Shown one piece after another: positions 99 to 40,213 of a DNA stretch of 40,213 bases. The number at the start of each line of letters is the position of its first letter. The stretch's first letter is position 1. Both the position numbers and the translations under genes were made by a program. A model generated the notes under the pieces. The model was given only the letters and a program-made list of their open reading frames with translations, was not told the DNA's origin and searched no databases. This DNA is from a virus (Duplodnaviria; Caudoviricetes): positions 1 through 40,213 of the IMG/VR virus record IMGVR_UViG_3300029825_000020. One strand, written 5' to 3'.

Positions 99-2472
99 AA
101 AAACTGGGACATACACACATTCGGTAATTGACATTAGTAGTGTACCTACAGAGCAAGCGATAAAGGCTGCGTTTAATACCACCACCCCATCGGGAACATA
201 CGTAACCTTTGAGGTTGCCTTGTCAAATGACTCTGGTGTAAATTACGGGGCATGGACGGCATACACCAGCGGTGAATTGGTGGTTGCTGCCGGTGTAGAC
301 AAATCTACAGATCGTCTTAAATGGAGAGCAATTTTATCTACTGTTGTTGATAGTGCCTCACCTAGTCTTGATGATGTTACATTGAGTCTGACTTACGGAA
401 CGGTAGGGGATTGGACATCGCCTGTTTATGATATAAGCAATACACCTGTAACCGCAACCATGACCTATACCAAGGGAACACCTGCTAATACCACTTGCAA
501 TGCGTATGTGCGTGGTAGCGGAAATGGCACGATATTTGGTGATTGGCAGGAGATACTGACAAGTGGTGACCCAATTCCACTACAAAGATATTTGCAAGTT
601 AAAGTGACCCTGACCTCTACCGATTTAACAAGCACACCGACATTTAGTGATTTTGTAATATCCCATAGTACAGGGTACACCGTTGCCAACAAATTAGACA
701 TATCGCCATTGGGCAGGGTAGATAACTTGCTATCCGGTAATAGCGTGTGTTTTTGCAACTATGAAGATTGGTGTTTAACCACCGATGGTTTAAGACCATT
801 CCTATTATATATAACCGATGATACCCAAGAGGTAGATACCGCACAGGCAGGGGGAGCATTAAGTATTACACTAAAGGCGGGGGCAAGTGCGGTAAATAAT
901 TTCTATAACAATGCCTTCATAACCATCACGGGTGGCACAGGAGAAGGGCAGACAAGATGGATAAGCGGATATGTAGGAGCAACCAAGGTAGCAACTGTAT
1001 CGGCGGCATGGGACACTCAACCCGATGCAACCACCACTTATTCCATAGGTTCTGCAATTAAGGTTAGGAATTTAGGCGTAGACCCCCCTGAGACTGCCCC
1101 TAGCGGTGTAGCTGGTGATTCAGGTAATCCCAATGGCGCATATAAACTAATGGTAACATACGTCAACGCAGACGGTGTGGAGAGCAATCCTAGCCCTGCC
1201 AGTGAATTAGTGACCGTATCCGGCAAGATGATAGTGTGGACTATACCAACCGATTCAAGTACGGGCAATACAACGGCAAAGCGAAGGTTATACAGGACAG
1301 CAGCGGGTGGTGCGGTATATAAGTATTTGAAAGAGGTAGCGAATAATACTTCCGCTACATACATCGATAATCGCTCTGACGCAGCATTGGGCAGTTTGAT
1401 GCTCGATAATAATAATGTCCCACCTTCGACTTGTTCACTTATATTTACATTTACCTCTTATGTTTTCTATGTCACGGAGCATTATTATGTGAGGTTCAGC
1501 AAGGCGGGTGCGCCTGACCAATGCCCCTATACCGAGTATGATATACAGGAGATAGCATTTCCCGATGAAGTAACCGATATGCGGTCAAGCCCTATTGCGT
1601 TGATATTCGGTGGAGAAAACTTCTTGGCCTCCGTTACAAGTAACGGGGGGTTTATATTCGATTCAGACCCGACAATAGACACCACCACCATGAAGATAGT
1701 AGACACACATGGAGGGTTGAGTTATAGGGCAAGTGCCATGTGTACGTCGCCTAACTTAAAGTCAACGCTAGTGGTCAATACCAATGTCGGATTACGCAGT
1801 ATCATACCTGGATTACAGGATAATTCGGTGGAGTCTGTTCCTTTTAGTAAGAATATGCAGAAGTATTATGACAGGAGTATAAACAGGGAACAGGCGGCAG
1901 CGGTATTCTACAACAATTACTATATCTACTCCTTTGAGTACATGGCAGAGGACGCATCAGAGAGCGAATATTTAACCTTTGCCTATGACTTTAGGACTGA
2001 ACAATGGAATGGGCCGTGGACGTTTGGAATGAGTGCCTACACCATACAGGGGAATGACCTGTACGCAGGGGATACCGCTAACGGCAAAGTGTATAAGATG
2101 TTCACGGGTAATACAGATGCAGGATCGGCAATAGTGATGGAGTGCGATATGCCAATGAGAGCACCAGGTAGTGAAGCCGGAACCTGTAAATTCAAGCGGC
2201 TCATGGGGATAATCCACGGTGACAGCACGACCACGGACACACTGATAAAGCCCAAGGTGGACGAGGCCGAGTGCATTATCCCGCTGGGACCCCTTGCGAC
2301 CACATTCACAGGTGACAAGCGGCCGGGACACGATTTTATCCGCACCCGAAAATACGGGATCGGCCTACCGAGAGGGCATACCTATTCTTTGCGGATAGTG
2401 GATGATAGTGTGAATCCGCTGAGAGTAATGAAGATAATCACGGAATACGAAGTACTACCGTTACGAAATTAG
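1..2472 (+). CDS. C-terminal part of podovirus tail nozzle/stabilisation-type protein (full gene 39281..40114 + 1..2472, about 1101 aa)
   Basis: The frame is open from base 1 and in frame with the ORF at 39281. It follows the adaptor gene and has a beta-rich, propeller-like C-terminus (AAAVFYNNYYIYS, TFAYDFRTEQW, LYAGD, KFKRL) with Thr/Ser-rich inserted modules. Confidence 0.7.
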   Translation, partial: KASDTSDYVDGARYLNGSVMTNDLTFWVYTATPKTGTYTHSVIDISSVPTEQAIKAAFNTTTPSGTYVTFEVALSNDSGVNYGAWTAYTSGELVVAAGVDKSTDRLKWRAILSTVVDSASPSLDDVTLSLTYGTVGDWTSPVYDISNTPVTATMTYTKGTPANTTCNAYVRGSGNGTIFGDWQEILTSGDPIPLQRYLQVKVTLTSTDLTSTPTFSDFVISHSTGYTVANKLDISPLGRVDNLLSGNSVCFCNYEDWCLTTDGLRPFLLYITDDTQEVDTAQAGGALSITLKAGASAVNNFYNNAFITITGGTGEGQTRWISGYVGATKVATVSAAWDTQPDATTTYSIGSAIKVRNLGVDPPETAPSGVAGDSGNPNGAYKLMVTYVNADGVESNPSPASELVTVSGKMIVWTIPTDSSTGNTTAKRRLYRTAAGGAVYKYLKEVANNTSATYIDNRSDAALGSLMLDNNNVPPSTCSLIFTFTSYVFYVTEHYYVRFSKAGAPDQCPYTEYDIQEIAFPDEVTDMRSSPIALIFGGENFLASVTSNGGFIFDSDPTIDTTTMKIVDTHGGLSYRASAMCTSPNLKSTLVVNTNVGLRSIIPGLQDNSVESVPFSKNMQKYYDRSINREQAAAVFYNNYYIYSFEYMAEDASESEYLTFAYDFRTEQWNGPWTFGMSAYTIQGNDLYAGDTANGKVYKMFTGNTDAGSAIVMECDMPMRAPGSEAGTCKFKRLMGIIHGDSTTTDTLIKPKVDEAECIIPLGPLATTFTGDKRPGHDFIRTRKYGIGLPRGHTYSLRIVDDSVNPLRVMKIITEYEVLPLRN

Positions 2473-2483
2473 GGGGTGACACA

Positions 2484-3878
2484 TTGGCTAATTCGGAAAC
2501 AAAGGATTTATATGAGATTGGTGGAGCCTACTACTATGATGACATAGGTACGAAAAGAGCAAGTGCAGATGACCAAGCGGCATATCTTATTGGACAAGCA
2601 ACAAGTGACCCTGCTAATACCACACTGGCAGATATGGGCTATGCAAATCCGCAAGGTGGTTGGGCAGGCACAGACACAAGCAGCACAGGCAATGGCCTTA
2701 TTTATAGTAATGATTATAGTAATAATGATGACTATACTCCCATGGGTGATACAAGGTCTAAATATGGAAACACCGAATGGACAGGGATGGGAAACCTGTA
2801 TAATCTTCCCGATGGTTCTAAACTGAGATATGACGGTAGTACGGTAGGACTCATATCTGCTCTTAATAAATATTACGGTGAGGGTGGTTGGAGCGATGGC
2901 AAGACACCCGATTCTTTCCCTAAGTTAAGCACTAGACCGGGATCAGGGCAAGTGCCTAAGTCACCGGGACTATACAAGGACCCCAACGACGGCTTGACCT
3001 ACGGCTATACCCTGGACAAGAGCGGCAATAGAGTGTGGGGTTCAGCTGGGAACGAATGGGCTTATCCCGAAGATATGAGTGGTGGTGACGCTATGACTTG
3101 GAATCAAGCACTTGCCCGTGCGGGTGGACAATTAAACCCTGTCTATGATACTCAGAGGGATAGACAAGAGGTTGCCGCATCACAGAACAGGGAAATGCTA
3201 CCTCAACTAATGGCAGCTAGATACGGCATGAGTGGTACTAAGGGTGGTAGGATAGGTTCTCAAATAACCAAATCCGTCCAAGCAGAAGGTTCAGCCATCA
3301 ATGCCATTGAGGGAGAGCGCACTAGAGGCATCAATGAATTAGCACAAGGACTGTATGAGCAGGACCAGGCAAGAGTTGAACGGCAATTAGCATTGCAAGC
3401 CGAGCAAGAACGGATAGCACAAGGATGGGCGCAGATAAACAATGCCCAAGCCAATGCAGAGGCAGACCGCAAGATGGCGTATGACTTCCGTTACCTTGAT
3501 GAAGAACGGTTCTTAAAGACCTACGGATTAAGTAAAGAACAATTCGCCTATGAGAAGATGACGGGTGACAGGGCATTTAATGAAGGTGTGCGCCAGTTCG
3601 ATACTTCATTGGATTGGGAGAAACAACAGTACGCAGATGATATGGCATATAAGCAAGCAGCATTAACAGCAAGTGGTAGCGGTGGTACTGGTGGTACAGG
3701 TGGTAGTGGTGGTGGAGATTTGACCGCCAATCAAGCTGACCAATCCCAACAAGCAGCAACTAAATGGGTAACTGAGCGAGTGAATAATGACCCTAGGTTA
3801 TTACCCGATGGCTCTAATTATTGGGTGCTTGCTGATGCTTGGAAAAATATGTATGTGCAAATGACTTATGGTAAGTAA
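2484..3878 (+). CDS. Putative internal virion/ejection protein, 464 aa
   Basis: Located between the nozzle and the large polyvalent protein. Gly/Ala/Gln-rich with a coiled-coil C-half (QQYADDMAYKQA, RQFD). TTG start after GGGGTG. Confidence 0.55.
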   Translation: MANSETKDLYEIGGAYYYDDIGTKRASADDQAAYLIGQATSDPANTTLADMGYANPQGGWAGTDTSSTGNGLIYSNDYSNNDDYTPMGDTRSKYGNTEWTGMGNLYNLPDGSKLRYDGSTVGLISALNKYYGEGGWSDGKTPDSFPKLSTRPGSGQVPKSPGLYKDPNDGLTYGYTLDKSGNRVWGSAGNEWAYPEDMSGGDAMTWNQALARAGGQLNPVYDTQRDRQEVAASQNREMLPQLMAARYGMSGTKGGRIGSQITKSVQAEGSAINAIEGERTRGINELAQGLYEQDQARVERQLALQAEQERIAQGWAQINNAQANAEADRKMAYDFRYLDEERFLKTYGLSKEQFAYEKMTGDRAFNEGVRQFDTSLDWEKQQYADDMAYKQAALTASGSGGTGGTGGSGGGDLTANQADQSQQAATKWVTERVNNDPRLLPDGSNYWVLADAWKNMYVQMTYGK

Positions 3879-19881: not shown

Positions 19882-20297
19882 CTCTCGCCCTCCTTATCTA
19901 GTTCGGCAAGGGTTTTCCATACGAATTTACATAAACTATCTTTATTACTATATGGATCCCTTTTCTCGTCCGGACATTTACAAGCTAATTCGCATATACT
20001 ACAAATGCAGGGATACCCTTCTGTTGATTCATCAGTTGCTACAATCCGCAAATCAGCATTTAACCCGTCAATAATTTTTTCTAGGTAATGGTTGGTTTCT
20101 ATGGCTTCATCCAATCCCTCGGTTATAGATGTAACCATCAGCTTTAACCGCTCAACCTCGGCCTCCAACTTACAAACCTTCTCCATGTGTTGTTTTGCCA
20201 CTTCCCGCCAATCCGCAGCCTCAGCCTCGGCCTCAGTTGCCCTTTCCTGCCATGTATAAGCTAAATCTATAATTTCACTAACTTCTGTACCCCTCAT
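19878..20297 (-). CDS. Hypothetical coiled-coil protein with C-terminal Cys cluster
   Basis: ATGA overlaps at both ends; CICSICELACKC..CKFVWK. Confidence 0.6.
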   Translation of the reverse strand: MRGTEVSEIIDLAYTWQERATEAEAEAADWREVAKQHMEKVCKLEAEVERLKLMVTSITEGLDEAIETNHYLEKIIDGLNADLRIVATDESTEGYPCICSICELACKCPDEKRDPYSNKDSLCKFVWKTLAELDKEGER

Positions 20298-20629
20298 ATC
20301 ATCCTCTCCTGCCGTTCCTTGTCTAATGTCTTAGGTTTGGGTGCAGGGTTCTTCCGTTCCCATGCCAGGATAGTCAAATAATCGCTAGCGTATTTCCTGC
20401 CCGTGCTACCCTTATATAGGTTGAGATTGTCTATCCTGTCCTCCGTCCCTGTTACCCCGAATTGCTCTATCAGTTTAGCGTGTTCCTGCTCTGTCATGGT
20501 CACATATTCGGCATAGCGTACCTTCTTAGATCGTTTGGGTTTCTCAACAGTAAAGCACTCCCCTTCGAGTGCTTCAATCTTGACCAGTATGCGGTTCACC
20601 AAGTCTTTCAGTTCTTCCAATTTATCCAT
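20294..20629 (-). CDS. Putative replication initiator/helicase-loader-associated protein
   Basis: VTMTEQEHAKLIEQFG..LNLYKGSTGRKYASDYLTILAW resembles C-terminal domains of phage replication proteins; located upstream of dnaB. Confidence 0.55.
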   Translation of the reverse strand: MDKLEELKDLVNRILVKIEALEGECFTVEKPKRSKKVRYAEYVTMTEQEHAKLIEQFGVTGTEDRIDNLNLYKGSTGRKYASDYLTILAWERKNPAPKPKTLDKERQERMI

Positions 20630-20670
20630 TATACCCTTCCTGCCATGATATCTTTGGTGTTAATGATCAT

Positions 20671-21312
20671 TTAACTAACCTCCTTCTTGGGGTACTGTTT
20701 CATCGTTGCCAATAGTGCTAATCCTTGTTCTCTGCCTAATTCATCCAATGCCTTGACGTTATACTCGGCTGCGGCAAAGTCTAGTAATTCTTCATCCGTC
20801 ATATCTAAACTCTTGGCGGTAGTTTTGATAACCTCAACCATTTTGTTGACATTAAACGGTGGGGCTTTCTGTTTATCTGGCACTTTGGTTTGGGGCTTGA
20901 TTCTGGTTTCACCCTTTCCATGTTGGTTGGTGTTATCTGAATCCTTGGTGTCATCAATGGCGAACAGTCCGTTGAGGGCATATTTTCGGGCATAGGATGA
21001 TGCTGCTCCTGTTACCTGGCTGCCATCCATCCCTTTCTTGTTTTCTTCTTCTCTAGCAAATGCCTGTACGCTATATAAGTCCGTGCTTTCCGTATCGCTC
21101 AAAGTAACTCTCGCCTTGATATAGTACCTATCCCCTACCATCACCACATCATCAGATATGTTTAAGACGGTCTTGGTTTCCAGCAATAGGGGTTTGACCG
21201 CTTCGAGAATGTCCTCGGCGTTGCGGTATGCGTATTTACCGAATGAATTATACTGGCTTTTGGGTGCTTTTAGTTTGGATTGGATAATCAGTAATTTATC
21301 GTAGATATTCAA
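20671..21312 (-). CDS. erf: ERF-family single-strand annealing protein
   Basis: LKAPKSQYNSFGKYAYRNAEDIL and QVTGAASSYARKYALNGLFAIDDTKDSD. Confidence 0.92.
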   Translation of the reverse strand: MNIYDKLLIIQSKLKAPKSQYNSFGKYAYRNAEDILEAVKPLLLETKTVLNISDDVVMVGDRYYIKARVTLSDTESTDLYSVQAFAREEENKKGMDGSQVTGAASSYARKYALNGLFAIDDTKDSDNTNQHGKGETRIKPQTKVPDKQKAPPFNVNKMVEVIKTTAKSLDMTDEELLDFAAAEYNVKALDELGREQGLALLATMKQYPKKEVS

Positions 21313-21491
21313 TTATTAACCTCCTTAGGTTTAACAACAAACCATTGTTGTTTATTGGGTGGTAACTGCCTAGAGTTTCTCCAATCTGCTACAGCTTTTT
21401 TGCTAACACCCTGTAATTCTGCTATCTGTCGGTCAAACAGACCTGATGAATACATGGCCCATCGTTGTTTGTCTACTATTGGATCGATCAT
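21309..21491 (-). CDS. Small HTH DNA-binding protein
   Basis: MYSSGLFDRQIAELQGVSKKAVADWR. Confidence 0.7.
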   Translation of the reverse strand: MIDPIVDKQRWAMYSSGLFDRQIAELQGVSKKAVADWRNSRQLPPNKQQWFVVKPKEVNN

Positions 21492-22345
21492 GACTTACAT
21501 CCTAAGTCACACCATTCTGCAACATTACAATATGATTGGCATTTCCTGCCCTGCCATCTTTCGTCCATGCTACACGGTGGTGGTGTTTGTCTGTTTTCTA
21601 ATGCGGTTAAGAGGGCATCTCTTTTTGCGCGGAAGTACGCTAGAACCTCGCTATCGTCCATATGTGGGACTTCGATCAAATATGCGTTCTGCTTTACTCC
21701 CCTGGTAGTGGCCATCTGTATACCACCATCTCTTACCGCAATGTCAAGAAACATCATCTTAACGGGGAAACCTGAATCCTCTAACATTAAACGGTACATG
21801 TTTAACTGGAGTTTTTGCTCTGTCAGGTCTGGAACACCTTGACGGGGCATCTTTTTTGTCTTGACTTGGCCTTTTTTGGGGCCTGTTTTGTAAACTTCGC
21901 CGGTGGGTTCGTTCACCATTTCTATCCCTAGGCATTTCATTACCTTGTAACTGCCATAGGTTTTAGAGTCATAAAGGCATTGATCTTCGTAGTAGTCAAA
22001 GGCTCCAGTGATACCTTCCAACTCTAATCTAATCTCGCCTATCTCATTATCAGCGGTGTATTTGTCCAACTCGGCGTGTGCCTTAGTTCCGATGATCCGG
22101 AATATGGCATCTTGGGGATTGATATAATAAGGATGGATGATTTCTAAATATGATTCTCTTGTACCTTTCAATAACTGCGTTACTGAGGGTTTGCCGTTCC
22201 ATACCCTGGCATCGGCTATCATCCGCAAGTTACGGAGTGCCATGCACTTCTTTGCAGGGTGTTGGTCTGCTATGCGGCAACCTTGGAAACATTGGTCAAA
22301 CGGTATAGATTGACCGTCCGTACATATAAATCCAATCTGACCCAA
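21488..22345 (-). CDS. PD-(D/E)XK (Cas4-like) nuclease
   Basis: PSVTQL, IGTKAH, ITGAFD..LYDSKT, QLNMY and C-terminal C..KCQSYCNVAEWC; paired with ERF. Confidence 0.8.
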   Translation of the reverse strand: MGQIGFICTDGQSIPFDQCFQGCRIADQHPAKKCMALRNLRMIADARVWNGKPSVTQLLKGTRESYLEIIHPYYINPQDAIFRIIGTKAHAELDKYTADNEIGEIRLELEGITGAFDYYEDQCLYDSKTYGSYKVMKCLGIEMVNEPTGEVYKTGPKKGQVKTKKMPRQGVPDLTEQKLQLNMYRLMLEDSGFPVKMMFLDIAVRDGGIQMATTRGVKQNAYLIEVPHMDDSEVLAYFRAKRDALLTALENRQTPPPCSMDERWQGRKCQSYCNVAEWCDLGCKS

Positions 22346-22519
22346 CTAGTTCACTTCCTTTATATGTATCTCCGCTTGTCCTCGCCTGTCATATCTTTCA
22401 ATTTATCTCTCCCTGCTTGCCCCGGCTCAATGGCTCCAGGTATGCGGCTCGGAAGGTCGGCTCCGGTATTCTCTTTTTAAAGAACATTGTCAACGGTAAT
22501 TTTTACCTTAACAATTCAC

Positions 22520-22548
22520 ATTGTAATGCTATGACATTATATTGTCAA
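22520..22548 (-). promoter_or_regulatory. SigmaA promoter of the replication operon, with a palindrome in its spacer
   Basis: TTGACA-17 bp-TACAAT on the minus strand; TAATG-N6-CATTA at 22524-22539. Confidence 0.85.
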
Positions 22549-22597
22549 CAACTTTTTATGTTTTTTTCATTTTTTCAATACTAAATAATTAATAAAT

Positions 22598-22622
22598 AAG
22601 AAAAAGCAGGGTTGCCCCTGCT
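22598..22622 (-). terminator. Intrinsic terminator of the early operon
   Basis: AGCAGGG-4 nt-CCCTGCT hairpin followed by TTTTCTT on the minus strand, just after the recombinase stop. Confidence 0.8.
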
Positions 22623-22644
22623 ATATTTTTTGCCTTATTTGCTT

Positions 22645-23310
22645 TTATTTATCCAGTAACCTTATCTTGCCAATTAGGTCAGTCATAGATATATGTGTAT
22701 ATATCTGAGTGGTTGAGATGTACGAATGCCCAAGCAGCTTACCTATATCCACAATAGACATTCCCTTGTTCAATAACTCTGTGGCGAATGTATGCCTTAA
22801 GCTATGGGGATGCACCAGTTTCTTATCTGCTCCATCCTGCAAATAAACTTTAGCCCGTTTGCTAATCGAATAAACCATCTCGCAGATGTTTCGGGCAACC
22901 GATTGCTTGCCCTTGAAGGTGGAGAACAACCATTTACTCTCTGGTGCAATCTTTAACCATTCCCTTATACAGGCTTCTACCGTGTTGCTCATAGGTATAT
23001 ATCGGTCTTTGCCACCCTTACCCATTTGAATGTATAGGGTATGTCTATCAAAGTCTATATCTGCCTTAGTCAGCTTTGTTACCTCTGATATACGCAGACC
23101 GCACTTTAACATAACCATGATTATTGCCATTTGTCGCTTGCCTGTTATGGTTGATGTGTTTATAACTGATAAGAATTGATCCACCTGGGATGACGTTAGC
23201 ACTTTGGGCAGCTTGCGGGATGGTTTTGGTTTTTCCTTTTCCCTGGCTAACTCCGCTGCTTGCCGTGCCAGTTCCCTTAATTGCTTTATGTCCATATTAG
23301 ATAAATCCAT
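22645..23310 (-). CDS. Short Xer-like tyrosine recombinase (catalytic domain only), 221 aa
   Basis: GLRISE (R), GKGGKDR (K), HSLRH (HxxR) and LLGH..TTQIY (H, Y) are all intact. Confidence 0.93.
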   Translation of the reverse strand: MDLSNMDIKQLRELARQAAELAREKEKPKPSRKLPKVLTSSQVDQFLSVINTSTITGKRQMAIIMVMLKCGLRISEVTKLTKADIDFDRHTLYIQMGKGGKDRYIPMSNTVEACIREWLKIAPESKWLFSTFKGKQSVARNICEMVYSISKRAKVYLQDGADKKLVHPHSLRHTFATELLNKGMSIVDIGKLLGHSYISTTQIYTHISMTDLIGKIRLLDK

Positions 23311-23365
23311 ATGTTTCCCTCCTTACTTGCTACGCCGGATTAAGGCTCCGGCTGCCTTATTTGCT

Positions 23366-23665
23366 TTAATTATTTAATACAACCGTTCTACCACCAACGA
23401 TAGTATATAAGGTGTAACCGTCCTTGCGGTACTGATCAATTTTAACTTGTGCCGATTTTCTAATCCCTTGTATAGTGGTGCTGCCTGGGTGGTGCTGAAT
23501 ATGCGATGTTCCGCGCACCTTAAACTCGACTACCTTATATTTCGGATATTCAACATAGTCGACGTACCTTTGCGCTAAAACTGTGTAGTATTCGTATTTA
23601 TTTTCCTTCATTCCAATCGCCCCTTCCTTACTTGCTTCAATAACTGCCTTTTCCAATCTGTTCAT
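23366..23665 (-). CDS. Early hypothetical protein (second in-frame start at ATG 23611)
   Basis: Both starts are preceded by the AGCAARTAAGG motif and an RBS. Confidence 0.6.
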   Translation of the reverse strand: MNRLEKAVIEASKEGAIGMKENKYEYYTVLAQRYVDYVEYPKYKVVEFKVRGTSHIQHHPGSTTIQGIRKSAQVKIDQYRKDGYTLYTIVGGRTVVLNN

Positions 23666-23689
23666 TACAATTCCACCTTTCCTTATTTG

Positions 23690-23938
23690 CTATATGTCGT
23701 AGTCGTATTCTTCGGTTGGTATAACTATTTTCCCTAGGGCGTGATTGATAATTTTCAACCTATTGGCATATACCGTTGCGCCGTTCTCTAGGTCGATTAA
23801 TGCTGAGTCTGCTCGGTTGTATTTGTCCAAGTTATTTGTTTCGATATATACCTTACTTGCTCTATGCCGTGGTTTGCAGTTTATAGTTAGTTCTATATCT
23901 TCTATTGGCAGTAATATATCCCCATGTTGAAAATACAT
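23690..23938 (-). CDS. Early hypothetical protein
   Basis: AAGGAAGGGG RBS. Confidence 0.6.
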   Translation of the reverse strand: MYFQHGDILLPIEDIELTINCKPRHRASKVYIETNNLDKYNRADSALIDLENGATVYANRLKIINHALGKIVIPTEEYDYDI

Positions 23939-23960
23939 TTTTATTCCCCTTCCTTAATCG

Positions 23961-24065
23961 CTAAAATTTGATTATGCTTGCCAGATAACTCGCTGCTATT
24001 ATCGCTCCAATACCTATGATCCAATATACACCACATACGCTGAGTGCCAATAATAAATCTTCCAT
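23961..24065 (-). CDS. Early 34-aa single-TM peptide, absent from the ORF track
   Basis: MEDLLLALSVCGVYWIIGIGAIIAASYLASIIKF; motif and AAGGGG RBS upstream. Confidence 0.55.
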   Translation of the reverse strand: MEDLLLALSVCGVYWIIGIGAIIAASYLASIIKF

Positions 24066-24147
24066 GCCTTATCCCCTTTCCTTATTTGCTTGGATGGGAT
24101 AAGATATAAGTGGTTGGGTTTATACCTTATCCCTTATTAGATTAGGC

Positions 24148-24318
24148 TTAGATTGCACTCTCGGCCTTTTCTATTTCCTGGTTAAACTGATCCCGTAGTT
24201 CCTGGGCCTTGACTTGCCATTCAAGCATCTTCTTAAAATTGCCTTTTTGAAAATAGATGTACACTTTATTCTCTGCATTGGAAACCTTCTGGTATAGCTT
24301 TAACTGCTCTCTTGTCAT
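24148..24318 (-). CDS. Early 56-aa helical protein (MTREQLKLYQK...), absent from the ORF track
   Basis: Translated by eye; GAGAGGT RBS. Confidence 0.6.
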   Translation of the reverse strand: MTREQLKLYQKVSNAENKVYIYFQKGNFKKMLEWQVKAQELRDQFNQEIEKAESAI

Positions 24319-24379
24319 GCCGTTTACCTCTCTTTCCTTATTAGTCGTTAATCATGTAGTTACTATTTACTCACTAATC

Positions 24380-24757
24380 CTAATCTTCATCTTCGCTATC
24401 ATTTTTATTAGTCAATATACCTATGTCTTTCAAGAAGTCTATATCTTCCTGGTTCCAACTGTCCTTATCTTCGTTATACATTTCAAGCAATTCGTTGGCA
24501 AAGCCTTCGTAACCGTGATAAGGAGTGTTATAAAAGGATTCCAATTTATCGCCGTTCATCATTGCGACTTGGCATTCATCGTTGACAAAAAACACGTTAC
24601 CGGAATTACGGTTCATCATTATTTGCACTCCAGAATCTTCAAAGTCTACAGGGAAACCTTGTTCGCATGATGCTATTAGCAATTCAGCTGCTAATTTTCT
24701 CTCTCTCCATCCAAAGTCTGCTAAGTTGGTGGTGGTCATTTCGTTACTCATTTCCAT
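24380..24757 (-). CDS. Early acidic protein, 125 aa
   Basis: ATG 24757 after GAGAGGTA is preferred to the track start at 24799; about 28 D/E vs 8 K/R. Confidence 0.7.
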   Translation of the reverse strand: MEMSNEMTTTNLADFGWRERKLAAELLIASCEQGFPVDFEDSGVQIMMNRNSGNVFFVNDECQVAMMNGDKLESFYNTPYHGYEGFANELLEMYNEDKDSWNQEDIDFLKDIGILTNKNDSEDED

Positions 24758-24780
24758 TACCTCTCTTTCCTTATTTGCTG

Positions 24781-24936
24781 TTATTTTTGATTCTTCCATG
24801 TGTCGTATTCAGCAATGTGATCAAAACACATATAGCCGCCAGCTACCTTTTTAATGATAGGATAGATATTGATATTGATTTTCTTTGCCAACTCTTTCCG
24901 GTCTTTCGCCTCAATAAAAACTTTCGCCATTTCCAT
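24781..24936 (-). CDS. Early 51-aa protein (..KVAGGYMCFDHIAEYDTWKNQK), absent from the ORF track
   Basis: GAGGAGGT RBS; fills the gap between its neighbours. Confidence 0.6.
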   Translation of the reverse strand: MEMAKVFIEAKDRKELAKKININIYPIIKKVAGGYMCFDHIAEYDTWKNQK

Positions 24937-24947
24937 TACCTCCTCGT

Positions 24948-25136
24948 TTATTGGTTACATAAAAAATCATCATCGGAAAAAATAATGCCTGCGTAATGGT
25001 TAAAAATTATATCGTCTGGTATTTCGCGACTTTCGGATAATTCTCCCCATGATATTCCATCGGTTGCAAGTTGTTCGACATAAGATTCTTTTAGTTCGTC
25101 CATCTCATCCCGGCTTAAGTCATAAACGGTTTTCAT
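24948..25136 (-). CDS. First early gene, 62-aa highly acidic protein
   Basis: GAGAGGT RBS; 16 D/E vs 4 K/R; directly downstream of the early promoter. Confidence 0.7.
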   Translation of the reverse strand: MKTVYDLSRDEMDELKESYVEQLATDGISWGELSESREIPDDIIFNHYAGIIFSDDDFLCNQ

Positions 25137-25175
25137 TTTGTTACCTCTCTTTCGCTTGTTTGTTTTGTTGTACTC

Positions 25176-25204
25176 AGTATATCACCGTCCAATTACCTTG
25201 TCAA
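25176..25204 (-). promoter_or_regulatory. Strong sigmaA early promoter
   Basis: TTGACA-17 bp-TATACT with extended -10 TG, and AT-rich DNA upstream. Confidence 0.9.
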
Positions 25205-25304
25205 GCATTTTATGATATTTTTATAAATATTTTTATGCCATATATATTTATTTTGAGGTATACGGCTGCCTGGATCAGTCAGAAAGTATGTGTAAAGTAA
25301 ATTT

Positions 25305-25332
25305 ACTTAACATAATATTAGATATTTAATGT
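25305..25332 (-). other. dif-like site (good XerD arm, degenerate XerC arm)
   Basis: Minus strand ACATTAAATAT-CTAATA-TTATGTTAAGT, compared with the E. coli XerD arm TTATGTTAAAT. Confidence 0.55.
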
Positions 25333-25409
25333 GCGTCATATTTAAGTAAATGTGCTATACTAATTAATTGTAAACCTATAAGAGAAAAAGAGGTTAACAA
25401 TCTTATATG

Positions 25410-25435
25410 AACATATGAGCAAGTATTCATATGTT
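25410..25435. promoter_or_regulatory. ArsR/SmtB-type 12-2-12 operator-like palindrome
   Basis: AACATATGAGCA-AG-TATTCATATGTT. Confidence 0.6.
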
Positions 25436-25505
25436 ATTGTGTGAGATATGGCATTGATGAAAATATAGAGTTTTAACCGAATGGTCATTCTTTTATAATA
25501 AGGAC

Positions 25506-25530
25506 AATTCCCACCAACATACTAGGAATT
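25506..25530. promoter_or_regulatory. Rrf2 (IscR/CymR)-type operator-like site
   Basis: 25-bp imperfect palindrome AATTCCCACCAACATACTAGGAATT. Confidence 0.5.
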
Positions 25531-25669
25531 AAGATTACAATCGGATCCTGTCTGTTTCCAACTGGATTCAACCCATAAAACCATAATATATCCGATTCTG
25601 TATCTTATCGGATATTTTTACGGGTATATTCGGTAGGTATCACAAGCAATATACCCTTCAACTACTCAA

Positions 25670-25708
25670 TCTGTATAGATATGCAGAATTTATGCATAAA
25701 TATATGGT
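25670..25708. promoter_or_regulatory. Tandem ARG-box-like (ArgR/AhrC) site
   Basis: Cores TGTATAGATATGCA (25672) and TGCATAAATATATG (25693) start 21 bp apart, the canonical 18+3 spacing. Confidence 0.5.
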
Positions 25709-26377
25709 TACTACCAGATCCTCTTGATTATAAAATTCTATCTGGTAGGGTATGGGGGTACACTCCCACCACCGTCTTTGATCCCCACCCCCATATATAA
25801 TAATTAGTGTTGAGATTACATATCAAAATTTTAAAACCAATTCTTAATCAAAGTCAGACACCTCTATGCGGTAGCGATTGATGTTTAATTATATCCTCTT
25901 TGTCAACACGGTTCCTGTACCAGTATGTCTATCCACTATCCCGATTAAACGAAGCTATGTTTGTATAGGGGGATATATCTCGTTCCCTTAAAAATGAACA
26001 AAAAAATAAAGGGCTATGCCCCTATAATTTTTATAAAATTTGTGGTTTCCGTTTATATAATATAATATTCCGTCCCAGCTATCGCTGGGCTTAACATACG
26101 TGTTGTATACATCTGACACGAACAACTACGGCAATACTGTTATATGCCTTGTGTTCGCTAGAGTCTTTTCTTTTATTCTTTTTTAATAACCAAGTTAGTA
26201 GTAGTTGTGGTGTTACTTAAAGACTTCGTTTTTATATATTATATCAATTTTTTCGCACTTTTACAAGGTAATCACTTGCAAGAATTTTCACAAATATAAA
26301 GATATTATATATATAAATATATATTATAACTATAATTTATAATAAGTTTCAATCAACTTATACATAAATTAGAATAT

Positions 26378-26388
26378 TGTGGTATAAT
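26378..26388 (+). promoter_or_regulatory. Probable late promoter (extended -10, poor -35)
   Basis: TGTGGTATAAT immediately upstream of the structured RNA, tRNA and terS. Confidence 0.65.
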
Positions 26389-26430
26389 ACTTATAGGTAG
26401 ATTTGTCTTCACGGGTATTTCTACATATTT

Positions 26431-26503
26431 GACCCGCCGCACCTCTCAGATGGAGTGACCCTGCTATCAGGGCATGGAAACCCGATGTGACCCATGGCGG
26501 GTT
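26431..26503 (+). ncRNA. Candidate structured RNA (four-way junction) upstream of the tRNA
   Basis: Closing stem ACCCGC/GCGGGT encloses hairpins CAC(C)TC/GAGTG, CCCTG/CAGGG and CATGG/CCATG. Confidence 0.45.
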
Positions 26504-26512
26504 GCTTATTAT

Positions 26513-26587
26513 GCCCCTGTAGCCCAACGGAACGGCAACTGCCTTGTAAGCAGTCGATTGTGGGTTCAAATCCTACCAGGGGCTCCA
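26513..26587 (+). tRNA. tRNA-Thr (anticodon UGU) with encoded CCA
   Basis: Acceptor GCCCCTG/CAGGGGC, anticodon arm ACTGC-CTTGTAA-GCAGT, T arm GTGGG-TTCAAAT-CCTAC and a TCCA end. Confidence 0.93.
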
Positions 26588-27417: not shown

Positions 27418-28174
27418 GATAATCCAGGGCGATTGCCTAGAAGTGATGCAGGGGATACCCGACAAGTCAGTTGATATGATACTCTGTGATTTGCCCTACG
27501 GTACAACCGCTTGTAAGTGGGACACGATTATTCCTTTTGAGCCATTGTGGGCGCAGTATGAGCGGATTGTTAAAGACAATGGTGCGATAGTGCTGACCGC
27601 AAGTCAACCGTTTACTACGAGCCTTATAGCAAGCAATATGGTGATGTTTAAATATGAGTGGATATGGGATAAAGGGGTATCTGGTTCTTTTGCTATTGCT
27701 AAATATCAACCTTTAAAGACCCATGAAAATATTTTAATTTTTGGCAAAAACAAAATTTTATATCAACCTCAAATGGTAAAAAGGGAAAAACCGGCTCGAA
27801 TTGGTGGAGTTAAATCAGGAAGCAAACAAGGTGGTAGGGATATTATTTATAATCCCGATAAACTTGATGCTAGAAAAATATATAATGAGGCGTTCCCTAA
27901 GACTATACAATATTTTTCACCTCGTTCCATGAAAAGTGATAGGGGATTACACCCCACGCAAAAACCGGTAGCACTCTTTGAATACCTAATAAAAACCTAC
28001 ACTCAACCGGGAGAGATAGTCTTAGATAACTGTATAGGTTCCGGTACAACCGCAGTAGCCGCCCTCAACACGGGGCGGTTTTTTATTGGCATAGAAAAGG
28101 AACCGCAATATGTGGAGATAGCAAGACAAAGAGTAGAACAGGCACAGGCGCAACAAAGCCTATTTGGAGGGTAA
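27338..28174 (+). CDS. DNA methyltransferase (N6-A/N4-C, beta class); start uncertain
   Basis: Motifs IIQGDCLE, ILCDLPY, HPTQKPV and VLDNCIGSGTT. Confidence 0.92.
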   Translation: MKNVGQGLMNLKQNVQQGKDLKNWLNKIIQGDCLEVMQGIPDKSVDMILCDLPYGTTACKWDTIIPFEPLWAQYERIVKDNGAIVLTASQPFTTSLIASNMVMFKYEWIWDKGVSGSFAIAKYQPLKTHENILIFGKNKILYQPQMVKREKPARIGGVKSGSKQGGRDIIYNPDKLDARKIYNEAFPKTIQYFSPRSMKSDRGLHPTQKPVALFEYLIKTYTQPGEIVLDNCIGSGTTAVAALNTGRFFIGIEKEPQYVEIARQRVEQAQAQQSLFGG

Positions 28175-28175
28175 T

Positions 28176-29711
28176 ATGGCAGACAAAGGGTTGGGGGAGT
28201 ATCTAACCCCACAGCAAGAGGAAATAGCATATCTTGAAATGCTTGAGTTGGAAAACCAACAGTTTGCCAAAGACTACTACATTGATTACGTTGAATATGT
28301 CCATAGAGGCCAATGGAAAACAGCAAAGCATCTGGAGTTGATATGTAATGAACTCCAAAAGATTATAGATAAACCAGACCAATCACATCGAATAATGATA
28401 TTTATGTCACCACGGGGAGGGAAAAGTCAATGCGTGAGCGAAACATTCCCTTCCTTTTTTCTTGGTCATTTCCCCGACAAGCGGGTGATGATAGGCAGTT
28501 ATGGGGATTCATTGGCACAGAGATTCGGTAAGCTGAACAGGCAGAAGATAAGCGAATTTGGGCCATCCATGTTTAATGTGTCCATATCAAAACAAAAGTC
28601 ATCCATGACCAATTTTGATATAGAGGGACACAGAGGCGGTATGCTCAGTATCGGTATCGGCTCCGGTGCAACAGGGCATGGTGCTGACCTGCTCCTACTT
28701 GATGACCCTGTCAAGAATAAGGAGGAGGCCGAATCTCAGACATACAGGGATAAGATATGGGCAGAGTGGCAGAACACATTTAGAACTAGACTCCACCCTG
28801 GCGCATCGGTCATCTTGATTATGACCAGATGGCATGAAGATGATTTAGCGGGACGGTTGCTCAACCCTGAGTATGGTGAGGTTGATGATTGGAGAATCAT
28901 AAATATTCCTGCCATAGCAGAAGAAAATGATTTACTTGGTAGACAACCAGGGGAACCGTACTGGCCTGAACACGGATTTGATTTGAAGTGGGCAGAAGAT
29001 ACTAAAAATGCGGTAGGTACGCAGACTTGGAACGCATTATACCAACAAAGACCCGCACCGGCAGAGGGAGCCATGATAAAGCGGGAATGGTTTAAGTTTT
29101 ATGAAGAAGTCCCGACTAACTTTGACCTATTGTTACAGAGTTGGGATTTATCCTTCAAAGATAGCGTAGGGAGTGACTTCGTATCGGGAATGGTGATGGG
29201 GAATGTCGGGGCCAACATATATTTATTACCTGACATATCTTATGGCAGAATGGATTTTCCGACTACATTAGATGCGATAAGGAAACTAACAGCAAGGAAT
29301 CCCAAGGCGCACTTAAAACTGATAGAGGATAAAGCTAATGGCCCTGCTGTTATTGCCATGTTGCGTAAGGAGATACGTGGGATTATACCCATAACACCCA
29401 AAGGCTCAAAGGTAGCAAGGGTTAGTGCCGTATCCCCGCTGATGGAGGCCGGTAACGTATTCTTGCCATCCCCCAAAATATGTTCTTGGGTAGAAGATTT
29501 CATAGAAGAATGTGCTGCTTTCCCCAATGGGACACACGATGATCGCGTTGACAGTCTAAGTCAAGGGTTACAACGGTTCATGTACGCAAGGGAAAAGAAA
29601 GCGAAGATAAAAGACAGGGACGAGTTTTTACATAGGAACACAAGCAACATTGATGACGTTTACAGGGGTGGGGAACCATCCGACAGTTACACCCGATTCG
29701 GTATGAAATAG
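28176..29711 (+). CDS. terL: Terminase large subunit
   Basis: Walker A MSPRGGKS, Walker B LLLLDDP, MTRWHEDDLAG, nuclease SWDLSF and HDDRVD. ATG after GGAGGG. Confidence 0.95.
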   Translation: MADKGLGEYLTPQQEEIAYLEMLELENQQFAKDYYIDYVEYVHRGQWKTAKHLELICNELQKIIDKPDQSHRIMIFMSPRGGKSQCVSETFPSFFLGHFPDKRVMIGSYGDSLAQRFGKLNRQKISEFGPSMFNVSISKQKSSMTNFDIEGHRGGMLSIGIGSGATGHGADLLLLDDPVKNKEEAESQTYRDKIWAEWQNTFRTRLHPGASVILIMTRWHEDDLAGRLLNPEYGEVDDWRIINIPAIAEENDLLGRQPGEPYWPEHGFDLKWAEDTKNAVGTQTWNALYQQRPAPAEGAMIKREWFKFYEEVPTNFDLLLQSWDLSFKDSVGSDFVSGMVMGNVGANIYLLPDISYGRMDFPTTLDAIRKLTARNPKAHLKLIEDKANGPAVIAMLRKEIRGIIPITPKGSKVARVSAVSPLMEAGNVFLPSPKICSWVEDFIEECAAFPNGTHDDRVDSLSQGLQRFMYAREKKAKIKDRDEFLHRNTSNIDDVYRGGEPSDSYTRFGMK

Positions 29712-39284: not shown

Positions 39285-40213
39285 GTTTTAATAATGTATT
39301 ACAACGCAAGGGCAGACTGAGCCAACAAAAGCGTGACCAACTCCTAGAATACGCCAATATCGTAGGTGTCAACTATGCCGATTCGATATACACGATGGCA
39401 GAGAATCAGAGTCCATACGCTAAGAATGTAGACTTTGGTGATCCTATCGGTTGCTTCACTAAACGTAAAGGTTATGAATCCCTTATAACCTCATTGGGTA
39501 CAGGGAAGGTGCTTGGCCTTAACAACTGGCAGCATAGCGTTGGTGACAAAATGCTTATGGCATGGGGAAATGACCTCTATGTATTGGGTGGCACGGTAGG
39601 TAGTGTAGCCAAGTCAAGCGATGCGGATTGGAACGCAGGGACACATAATCTTACAGAGGTAAGTAGCGGGGATATTGTTTTATCTAATGGAACATGGACA
39701 GATGCCATTACCGCCACCGCAGATTTCAATGGTTCACATAGTAACACTGCTGCCGCTAGTGACAAGGTTAGTTTGGTGGATGCTACCGTAAGTCAAACTG
39801 TCGTTATAACCCAAAATGTTGCCACGGGTACAGATGTCACAATTAATTCCACTACCTCACAAGGACAGACCATAACGATGCCCACGGGGGTAACCAATGT
39901 TAGTTCAATACAAGTTGGTGTGGATTTAGTTACGACAAGCGGCGATGTAACCATGACCTTCTATGATGGTGTCGCAAAGTCCAATACGCTAGGTTCAGCA
40001 GTAGTAAGTATAACCACAACAGGCACTAAGACATTCGCAGTAGGGGCATTGGGATTAACTGTCGGAGAAACCTATTATTTTGAACTAACTACCGCAAGTG
40101 CGAGTATAAAGATTAAGGCTTCCGATACATCCGATTATGTCGATGGAGCCAGGTATTTAAATGGTTCAGTTATGACCAATGACTTGACTTTTTGGGTTTA
40201 TACCGCCACACCG
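39281..40213 (+). CDS. N-terminal part of the tail nozzle gene (continues at base 1), absent from the ORF track
   Basis: The TTG overlaps the adaptor stop (TTGA). Reads MSFNNVLQRK..GVNYADS..ENQSPYAKNVDF..FTKRKGY, in frame with 40115 (= base 1). Confidence 0.8.
   Translation, partial: MSFNNVLQRKGRLSQQKRDQLLEYANIVGVNYADSIYTMAENQSPYAKNVDFGDPIGCFTKRKGYESLITSLGTGKVLGLNNWQHSVGDKMLMAWGNDLYVLGGTVGSVAKSSDADWNAGTHNLTEVSSGDIVLSNGTWTDAITATADFNGSHSNTAAASDKVSLVDATVSQTVVITQNVATGTDVTINSTTSQGQTITMPTGVTNVSSIQVGVDLVTTSGDVTMTFYDGVAKSNTLGSAVVSITTTGTKTFAVGALGLTVGETYYFELTTASASIKIKASDTSDYVDGARYLNGSVMTNDLTFWVYTATP
40115..40212. repeat. Terminal direct repeat, copy 2
   Basis: Identical to bases 1-98. Confidence 0.95.

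Follow-up and report, generated by a model that had tools for sequence, protein, structure and literature searches.

An array of operator-like sites for unrelated host regulators in a gene-free region of a phage genome

The locus and its palindromes

The window, that is the whole stretch of DNA analysed here (40,213 nucleotides), covers positions 1 to 40,213 of the IMG/VR record IMGVR_UViG_3300029825_000020, a virus of the Caudoviricetes. Its positions 1-99 and 40115-40213 repeat each other in 98 of 99 bases, which indicates a closed circle of ~40.1 kb even though the record is classed as linear and 47% complete. The segment 39285-40114 is coding-looking and resembles the beginning of the listed ORF 58-2472. 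By searching PHROGs and Pfam, we found genes for a portal, a capsid, internal virion proteins and an LPD38 protein, and no clear CI-type repressor was found in the phage. The ribosome-binding sites and the nearest terminases point to a host among the Bacillota, and the closest prophage relative is a single one with a portal identity of 39%. The DNA of the window occurs in a fermentation metagenome run, and contigs of relatives come from wastewater and landfill runs.

The array under study sits inside a stretch without any accepted gene (25137-26512). Leftward from 25136 lie the early and replication genes, and rightward from 26513 a tRNA-Thr, terS, a methylase, terL and the portal gene. Among the early genes, 2 kb from the array, positions 22645-23310 encode a 221-aa tyrosine recombinase that is almost purely a catalytic domain. 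Identical 13-bp repeats (24324-24336, 24757-24769 and 25141-25153) lie over the ribosome-binding regions of small early genes, and contigs in other runs jump between them, which suggests that early-gene cassettes are exchanged there. The main features are given below, one per line, with the strand where the feature has one; L237 is the relative discussed in the third section.

25176..25204, minus strand: near-consensus sigma70 promoter for the leftward early genes (11/12 consensus matches plus TG; function assigned from position)
25305..25315, minus strand: XerD-arm-like 11-mer, the genome-best arm (13.6 bits; 50/5000 shuffles reach the score)
25367..25401: BirA (biotin repressor) operator-type site (27.5 bits, genome best; 0/5000 shuffles)
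25410..25435: ArsR/SmtB (CzrA/CadC-type) 12-2-12 operator-type site (30.3 bits; 0/5000 shuffles)
25473..25488: TetR-like dyad (16/16 identical in L237; no host enrichment)
25506..25530: CymR/IscR (Rrf2) operator-type site (22.3 bits; 0/5000 shuffles; 25/25 identical in L237)
25588..25615: dyad, mostly preserved in L237 (24/28 identical, 6/9 pairs kept)
25622..25656: perfect 9-bp dyad whose spacer is conserved and whose arms are not (L237: 7/9 pairs broken, spacer 17/17)
25670..25708: tandem ARG boxes (ArgR/AhrC-type), 21 bp apart (21.1 bits; 0/5000 shuffles; L237 scores 17.3)
25711..25748: perfect 9-bp dyad not kept as a dyad, central core kept (L237: 7/9 pairs broken, 1 compensated, spacer 14/20)
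25751..25795: conserved block of G/C runs, a candidate signal for packaging or cutting (43/45 identical in L237)
25854..26344: conserved non-coding segment on the terS side of the array, putative late promoter or packaging region (91-92% identity in L234 and L237)
26513-26587, plus strand: tRNA-Thr(TGT) ahead of terS (in the relatives L234 and L237, the alignment stops at 26344 and starts again past the tRNA)
28164..29711, plus strand: large terminase (phrog_38; nearest isolates FP_Brigit, Pagevirus and B054)

A previous reading of the letters without database searches (the sequence-only reading) had described a ladder of different dyads in ~500 non-coding bp, and we recovered all eleven of its elements in place. 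Counting perfect stems of at least 9 bp with a loop of up to 30 nucleotides, we found 13 in the whole genome, 5 of which fall in 25410-25795; shuffled versions of 25290-25800 hold 0.17 such stems on average and none of 1500 shuffles reached 4. The array is confirmed, and is stronger than first put forward. Three further perfect 9-bp dyads of the window could be additional operators, or palindromes that template switching has made perfect.

Two observations concern the neighbouring DNA. On the minus strand of 26009-26352, inside the 91-92% conserved block, two promoter-like sites (11/12 and 10/12) face a terminator-like hairpin (26023-26009); this could possibly be a small RNA of about 250-300 nt, for which Rfam gave no match, the only match in the genome being the tRNA. 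A list of consensus motifs, run on the non-coding region of the window, returned a weak CodY-like match at 26026 as its sole hit.

Operator identity

The host tests were run on a phylum-wide sample of Bacillota. Matrices were learnt de novo and independently of the phage upstream of host bioY (30 loci), cadA operons (19 loci, the motif being learnt on intergenic DNA), cymR/rrf2 (30), argC (30) and csoR (30), and a dif matrix was built from 25 pattern-selected host sites. The significance of matrix scores was judged against 5000 dinucleotide shuffles, and the reversed pattern served as control for the pattern scans of hosts and phages.

First, the BirA matrix gave 27.5 bits at 25367, with 13.1 bits for the next site elsewhere in the genome and 29.3 bits for the top host site. 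This dyad also fits the geometry expected of a BirA operator, two inverted arms of ~11 bp lying 12-14 bp apart, so that a palindrome left unnamed by the sequence-only reading is newly identified as BirA-type. Second, the genome-best ArsR site at 25410 reaches 30.3 bits in a host range of 17.6-30.4. Third, the genome-best CymR site at 25506 (22.3 bits) falls in the middle of the host range. Fourth, the tandem ARG matrix has its genome-best site at 25670/25691 with 21.1 bits, followed by 7.5 bits for the next one; host sites score 13-34 bits in 29 of 30 loci, which places the phage boxes in the lower-middle of that range, box 2 alone being weak (8.6 bits). The boxes have the expected length of 18 bp, and their period of 21 bp falls in the expected range of 20-22 bp. 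These four genome-best sites all lie within 342 bp (25367-25708). With the same thresholds, 528 kb of distant portal/terminase relatives gave no BirA, ArsR, CymR or tandem-ArgR hit. Four site types of the array hence score like the operators of unrelated host repressors, far beyond chance.

We then looked at the places where such patterns occur in host genomes. Having been modelled in part on known operators and in part on the phage sites themselves, such patterns give a test that is not independent of the phage. The BirA-type pattern was found in 16/201 host genomes (1 for the reversed pattern), and 14 of the 16 places adjoin bioY, bioB, bioD, bioW or birA. The ArsR-type pattern occurred in 6/101 genomes versus 0 reversed, with all 7 places adjoining Zn/Cd P-type ATPases or a CDF exporter; one host match equals the phage core across 20 bases. 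For the CymR-type pattern we counted 5/151 genomes versus 0, all 6 places adjoining nifS, cymR or a moeB-type gene, and for the tandem ARG pattern 6/101 versus 0, two of them directly upstream of argC.

The five operator labels of the sequence-only reading did not all fare alike. Its ArsR/SmtB, CymR/IscR and tandem ArgR labels hold, and a shuffle-controlled matrix scan of the kind it had proposed gave 0/5000 for each of the four host-trained matrices. The XerD arm is real but weak: 25305-25332 has an 11-6-11 layout (with 25316-25332) in which a host-type XerC arm is absent, and as a full dif it scores 3.7 bits against 19.9-41.4 for the 25 host sites, a value reached by 534/5000 shuffles, only the XerD arm contributing. 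The RutR/TetR label for 25473 is not supported, the pattern occurring in 11/101 host genomes versus 14 for its reversal, with unrelated neighbours at 4 intergenic places. Two other assignments failed: a CsoR site in 25751-25795 (17-bp dyad matrix; best of the region 4.4 bits, as high in 4047/5000 shuffles) and a host counterpart of the 25588 dyad (1/151 host genomes versus 4 for the control).

The array resembles the Bacillota host operators of BirA, ArsR/SmtB, CymR/IscR and ArgR/AhrC in dyad geometry and score range, and differs from them in lying on a phage, with its sites side by side and without promoter overlap or regulated genes. Searches of PHROGs (56 ORFs) and Pfam (48 ORFs) found neither the regulators BirA, ArsR, CymR and ArgR nor their target genes, which agrees with the earlier statement that no ArsR, TetR, Rrf2 or ArgR protein is encoded. 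Overlap with promoters of biotin or metal-efflux genes, as seen in host operators, is absent, and the phage has no such genes. It had also been argued that the sites are too distant from the early -35 element for ordinary repression; the closest repressor-type site is 163 bp upstream of that hexamer and none overlaps a strong promoter. The sites of the array are very probably true binding sites for host regulators.

Relatives, DNA ends and similar arrays

Among the relatives, only L237 is informative for the array: L233 is identical to the window and hence not independent, L234 covers the right block only, and L235 and L236 have other genes upstream. L237 is 80% identical to the window over 25468-25842. 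It keeps the TetR-like dyad (16/16), the CymR site (25/25), ARG box 1 (17/18) and the G/C block (43/45), the first three giving 58/59 identical positions together, versus 102/152 between elements. The 94 bases of L237 opposite the BirA and ArsR sites are unrelated sequence carrying other dyads. The comparison in relatives suggested earlier thus revealed a different module set, with BirA and ArsR replaced and CymR, TetR-like and ARG sites retained. Contigs of other runs differ from the window at three points: another palindrome has been inserted at 25292-25305, the sequence after 25438 is foreign, and the DNA ahead of 25688 holds another ARG-like half, still in register.

The palindromes at 25622 and 25711 behave otherwise. 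In L237 each of these dyads has lost 7 of its 9 pairs, with 0 and 1 compensated, respectively, while the spacers were kept, and no perfect 9-bp stem is left. That two perfect palindromes are broken makes RNA hairpins, which the sequence-only reading had named as a possible refutation, unlikely. Stems kept by compensatory change, as expected for a structured non-coding RNA, were not found in this one informative relative, nor did Rfam match the region. Together, the conservation and breakage seen in L237 and the swaps seen in contigs indicate that the region behaves as a set of exchangeable duplex sites and not as an RNA fold.

The array had been proposed to lie at the first-injected end of the genome. 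This placement remains a conjecture: the terminase is closest to headful types (FP_Brigit, 54% identity; Pageviruses and B054, 49%), and the arrays of L105/G221 and L178, two other phages, are on the terminase side. In a close relative (L003 and L001, one contig), the terminase is 96-98% identical and interrupted by ~800 bp of additional DNA, which could be an intron or a mobile insertion. In its genome announcement, the terminase of the Pagevirus Pascal is called pac-type headful by homology (PMC4319499). Contigs of four runs, aligned on 20000-26200, pass through the array region, so that ends cannot be read from them; contig depth rises over the array in three runs, which is not evidence of ends.

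Packaging of the P22/SPP1 type provides the logic by which we placed pac. If pac lay between the G/C block and terS and packaging ran rightward, the array would be a few kb (at least 2 kb) inside the entering end, ahead of a genome-facing promoter; in the same headful layout, only the DNA left unpackaged by the cut would have the array at its end. The common feature of the arrays is their closeness to presumed cuts or ends, not the leading end itself.

By scanning IMG/VR with the ArsR pattern, we found 96 loci versus 37 for its reversal. The 80 loci with flanks fall into 47 clusters, 34 of which are in gene-free stretches of at least 250 bp without host metal genes, compared with 3/19 for the reversed pattern, and 10 of these 34 non-coding clusters have a second ArsR site. 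ArsR-type sites within 600 bp of a contig end were seen in 11/44 cases (1.9 expected), against 0/13 for the small control (0.7 expected), contig ends also arising from assembly breaks and at variable non-coding DNA. One of these records has inverted terminal repeats, with an ArsR-type site about 50 bp from each end. Contigs of 12 kb that are phi29-like (L141/L142, L149/L150 and L226/L227) have an ArsR-type site 13-77 bp from both ends, the L141 record being classed as having inverted terminal repeats. The L141 site, by eye, follows closely on a promoter, the arrangement of ordinary repression.

Mixed arrays were searched for with five matrices. A second, different high-scoring operator within 600 bp was found in 6/39 CIRCE-anchored clusters (0.19 expected), 2/45 ArsR clusters (0.47 expected) and 1/36 BirA clusters (0.20 expected), and in 0/19 of the control (0.33 expected). 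Many viral CIRCE sites are ordinary, 8 of the 30 neighbouring proteins tested being Hsp20, GroES, HrcA or Clp. A set of 27 BirA-pattern loci near contig starts was put aside as a chance match within a gene. Of the ORFs flanking arrays, 60/78 could be annotated, and terminase or portal genes adjoin 8 loci; a terminase search located TerL in 1 of 5 array-bearing records.

Several individual cases can be mentioned. CIRCE is combined with BirA-, ArgR-, ArsR- or CsoR-type sites in L523, L570, L506, L544, L564, L572, L195 and L137, several of these arrays being just upstream of consensus promoters. XerD-arm sites, which are not repressor sites, share the same arrays, L570 having tandem ARG boxes together with a XerD arm, and so do sites that we take, by eye, to be parS-like. 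The cultured Enterococcus phage H1 (L607, OP534061.1) has a 980-bp gene-free stretch (2050-3030) between divergent genes, behind a consensus promoter, with two ArsR-type sites (25.5 and 23.3 bits) and, by eye, what are presumably two cre-like, two Rex-like and one dre-like site; this stretch is common to 7 records. Staphylococcus phage vB_SpsS-DH5 (L606) has two ArsR-type sites in a gene-free segment (691-957) that is within 2 kb of a record end in 4 of 6 related records. In L488, a CymR-pattern site (1201-1225) has an ORF that is HNH-type by eye on one side and, at a distance of 58 bp, the contig end on the other, a layout like that of cos phages. No such site was found in the whole of Page or at the record starts of SPO1, A511, K and 6ec, so the feature is not universal.

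Possible functions of the array

We prefer, tentatively and from sequence comparisons, the idea that the array is a position-dependent landing pad for host proteins near the DNA ends. On arrival of the phage DNA, host proteins would bind the operator-type sites and coat the DNA beside the predicted packaging start, where ends would form. This coat would hold or shield the DNA until the early promoter, 160-500 bp away, fires. Selection would then act on occupancy, not on the identity of each regulator. Both the binding in vivo and the location of the ends are parts that we infer. The landing pad is preferred because the sites form a cluster, lack promoters, can be exchanged, stand alongside non-repressor sites and, in other phages, are enriched near ends. 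Concerning the clustering, four non-coding positions drawn at random span no more than 325 bp with a P of about 0.002 (slightly higher when 39285-40114 is left out). Against the landing pad stand the headful-like terminase, the arrays on the terminase side, the weak mixed co-occurrence in two of the three sets, the small control for the end bias, the promoter-adjacent ArsR-type site of L141 and the negative results for Page and the four record starts; in addition, RecBCD and AddAB displace single bound proteins.

A partial parallel is the injection stop of T5, which the accessible part of the source describes as gene-free and palindrome-rich, with DnaA boxes proposed to hold the entering DNA and the host factor unsolved (bioRxiv 10.1101/866236). 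The array likewise is a gene-free, palindrome-rich stretch with sites for host proteins. In contrast, the T5 region, as far as that part of the source goes, concerns one protein type, is inside a long terminal repeat and goes with a two-step injection, the latter not being known for this podovirus-like phage.

A less likely alternative is that of a repressor decoy, in which the tens to hundreds of consensus operators on the amplified genome would titrate host repressors and thereby switch on supply genes: those for biotin, cysteine and Fe-S, and arginine here, and chaperone, iron and carbon genes in other phages. Multicopy operators do titrate repressors in plasmid work. The array shares with such plasmid experiments the presence of consensus operators on an amplified replicon, and a literature search found no phage example of operator titration. 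A decoy would fit the consensus strength of the sites, the repeated ArsR sites in 10/34 non-coding clusters, and the fact that the four identified proteins all repress supply or detoxification genes, judging from the host neighbours. However, it needs neither the tight clustering nor the bias towards ends, each operator is single-copy here, and the part that L237 covers has neither the BirA nor the ArsR site. Moreover, XerD-arm and parS-like sites titrate no regulon, and the gain from derepressed metal efflux is unclear. Titration during genome amplification may be a side effect in any case.

With a lower probability still, the array could be a sensor of the host state, in which repressor occupancy would tune early-promoter activity or read-through transcription, thereby deciding whether to proceed, like Spo0A in phi29. 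BirA, CymR and ArgR occupy their operators when the cell is replete, ArsR when it is unstressed. ArsR-type sites do adjoin promoters in L141 and L166, and transcription from leftward promoter-like sites at 25826, 26266 and 26352 could run on across the array. A precedent exists in the Spo0A boxes of phi29 and Nf, through which, according to the accessible part of that study, the host regulator represses early promoters and replication origins directly (PMC2731898). These lytic phages resemble ours in keeping host-regulator sites on their genome, but involve one regulator, whereas the array combines four unrelated site types 160-500 bp upstream of the promoter. The phi29-type layout of host boxes overlapping the early promoter was not found, with 163 bp between the -35 hexamer and the nearest repressor-type site, and the free swapping of regulators between relatives fits a tuned sensor poorly.

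We consider it improbable that the array is a recombination or packaging architecture, either a cer-like multimer-resolution site (core 25305-25332) with ArgR and other host proteins as benders, serving host Xer or the phage tyrosine recombinase 22645-23310, or an IHF-like aid to the terminase. ArgR is an accessory factor at ColE1 cer, and a XerD-type arm and ARG boxes are common to dif/cer and the array. The XerD arm is the best of the genome, the recombinase gene is 2 kb away and L570 pairs tandem ARG boxes with a XerD arm. Nevertheless, the XerC-type arm is missing (3.7 versus 20-41 bits), 50/5000 shuffles reach the score of the XerD arm, about 340 bp separate the ARG boxes from the core, and BirA, ArsR and CymR have no known role of this kind.

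Even less probable are neutral relics, that is host promoter fragments taken up through illegitimate recombination that have yet to decay: the modular make-up of the region and its variation among relatives speak for relics, but the sites are stripped of their host promoter and gene context, score at the top of the range, are far better kept in L237 than the DNA between them, and recur as a layout in unrelated phages. Least of all do we expect the dyads to be hairpins, be it in a non-coding RNA or in single-stranded DNA, since folding z-scores of -2.7 (plus strand) and -1.75 (minus strand) and five perfect stems where 0.17 are expected are outweighed by the lost pairs and retained spacers of L237, the lack of any Rfam match besides the tRNA and the match to four host matrices, which hairpins leave unexplained.

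Returning to the landing pad, we propose with more reserve a general version of it: many Bacillota phages might keep a tight, promoter-less cassette of sites for unrelated host proteins, and the bound proteins might act, while the DNA enters and is packaged, as a cap or anchor that the phage borrows for its DNA ends. If true, this would be a non-coding counter-defence or entry device made wholly of host regulators.

Our searches of the literature, which covered mainly open-access papers, returned no account of a phage with host operators of several kinds arrayed away from promoters. Taken together, our data establish that the array is real and highly non-random, that it has operator-type sites for four named host regulators and that it recurs in unrelated phages, its function being proposed. 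Most non-coding DNA near phage termini lacks an explanation, and the array offers an example that can be decoded. Each of the four regulators has a well-studied counterpart in B. subtilis, and Enterococcus phage H1 is a cultured carrier of the same layout. The operator set could also aid host prediction for uncultured phages. Finally, end capping or titration, if either is true, would mean that phages use host regulators without any phage protein.
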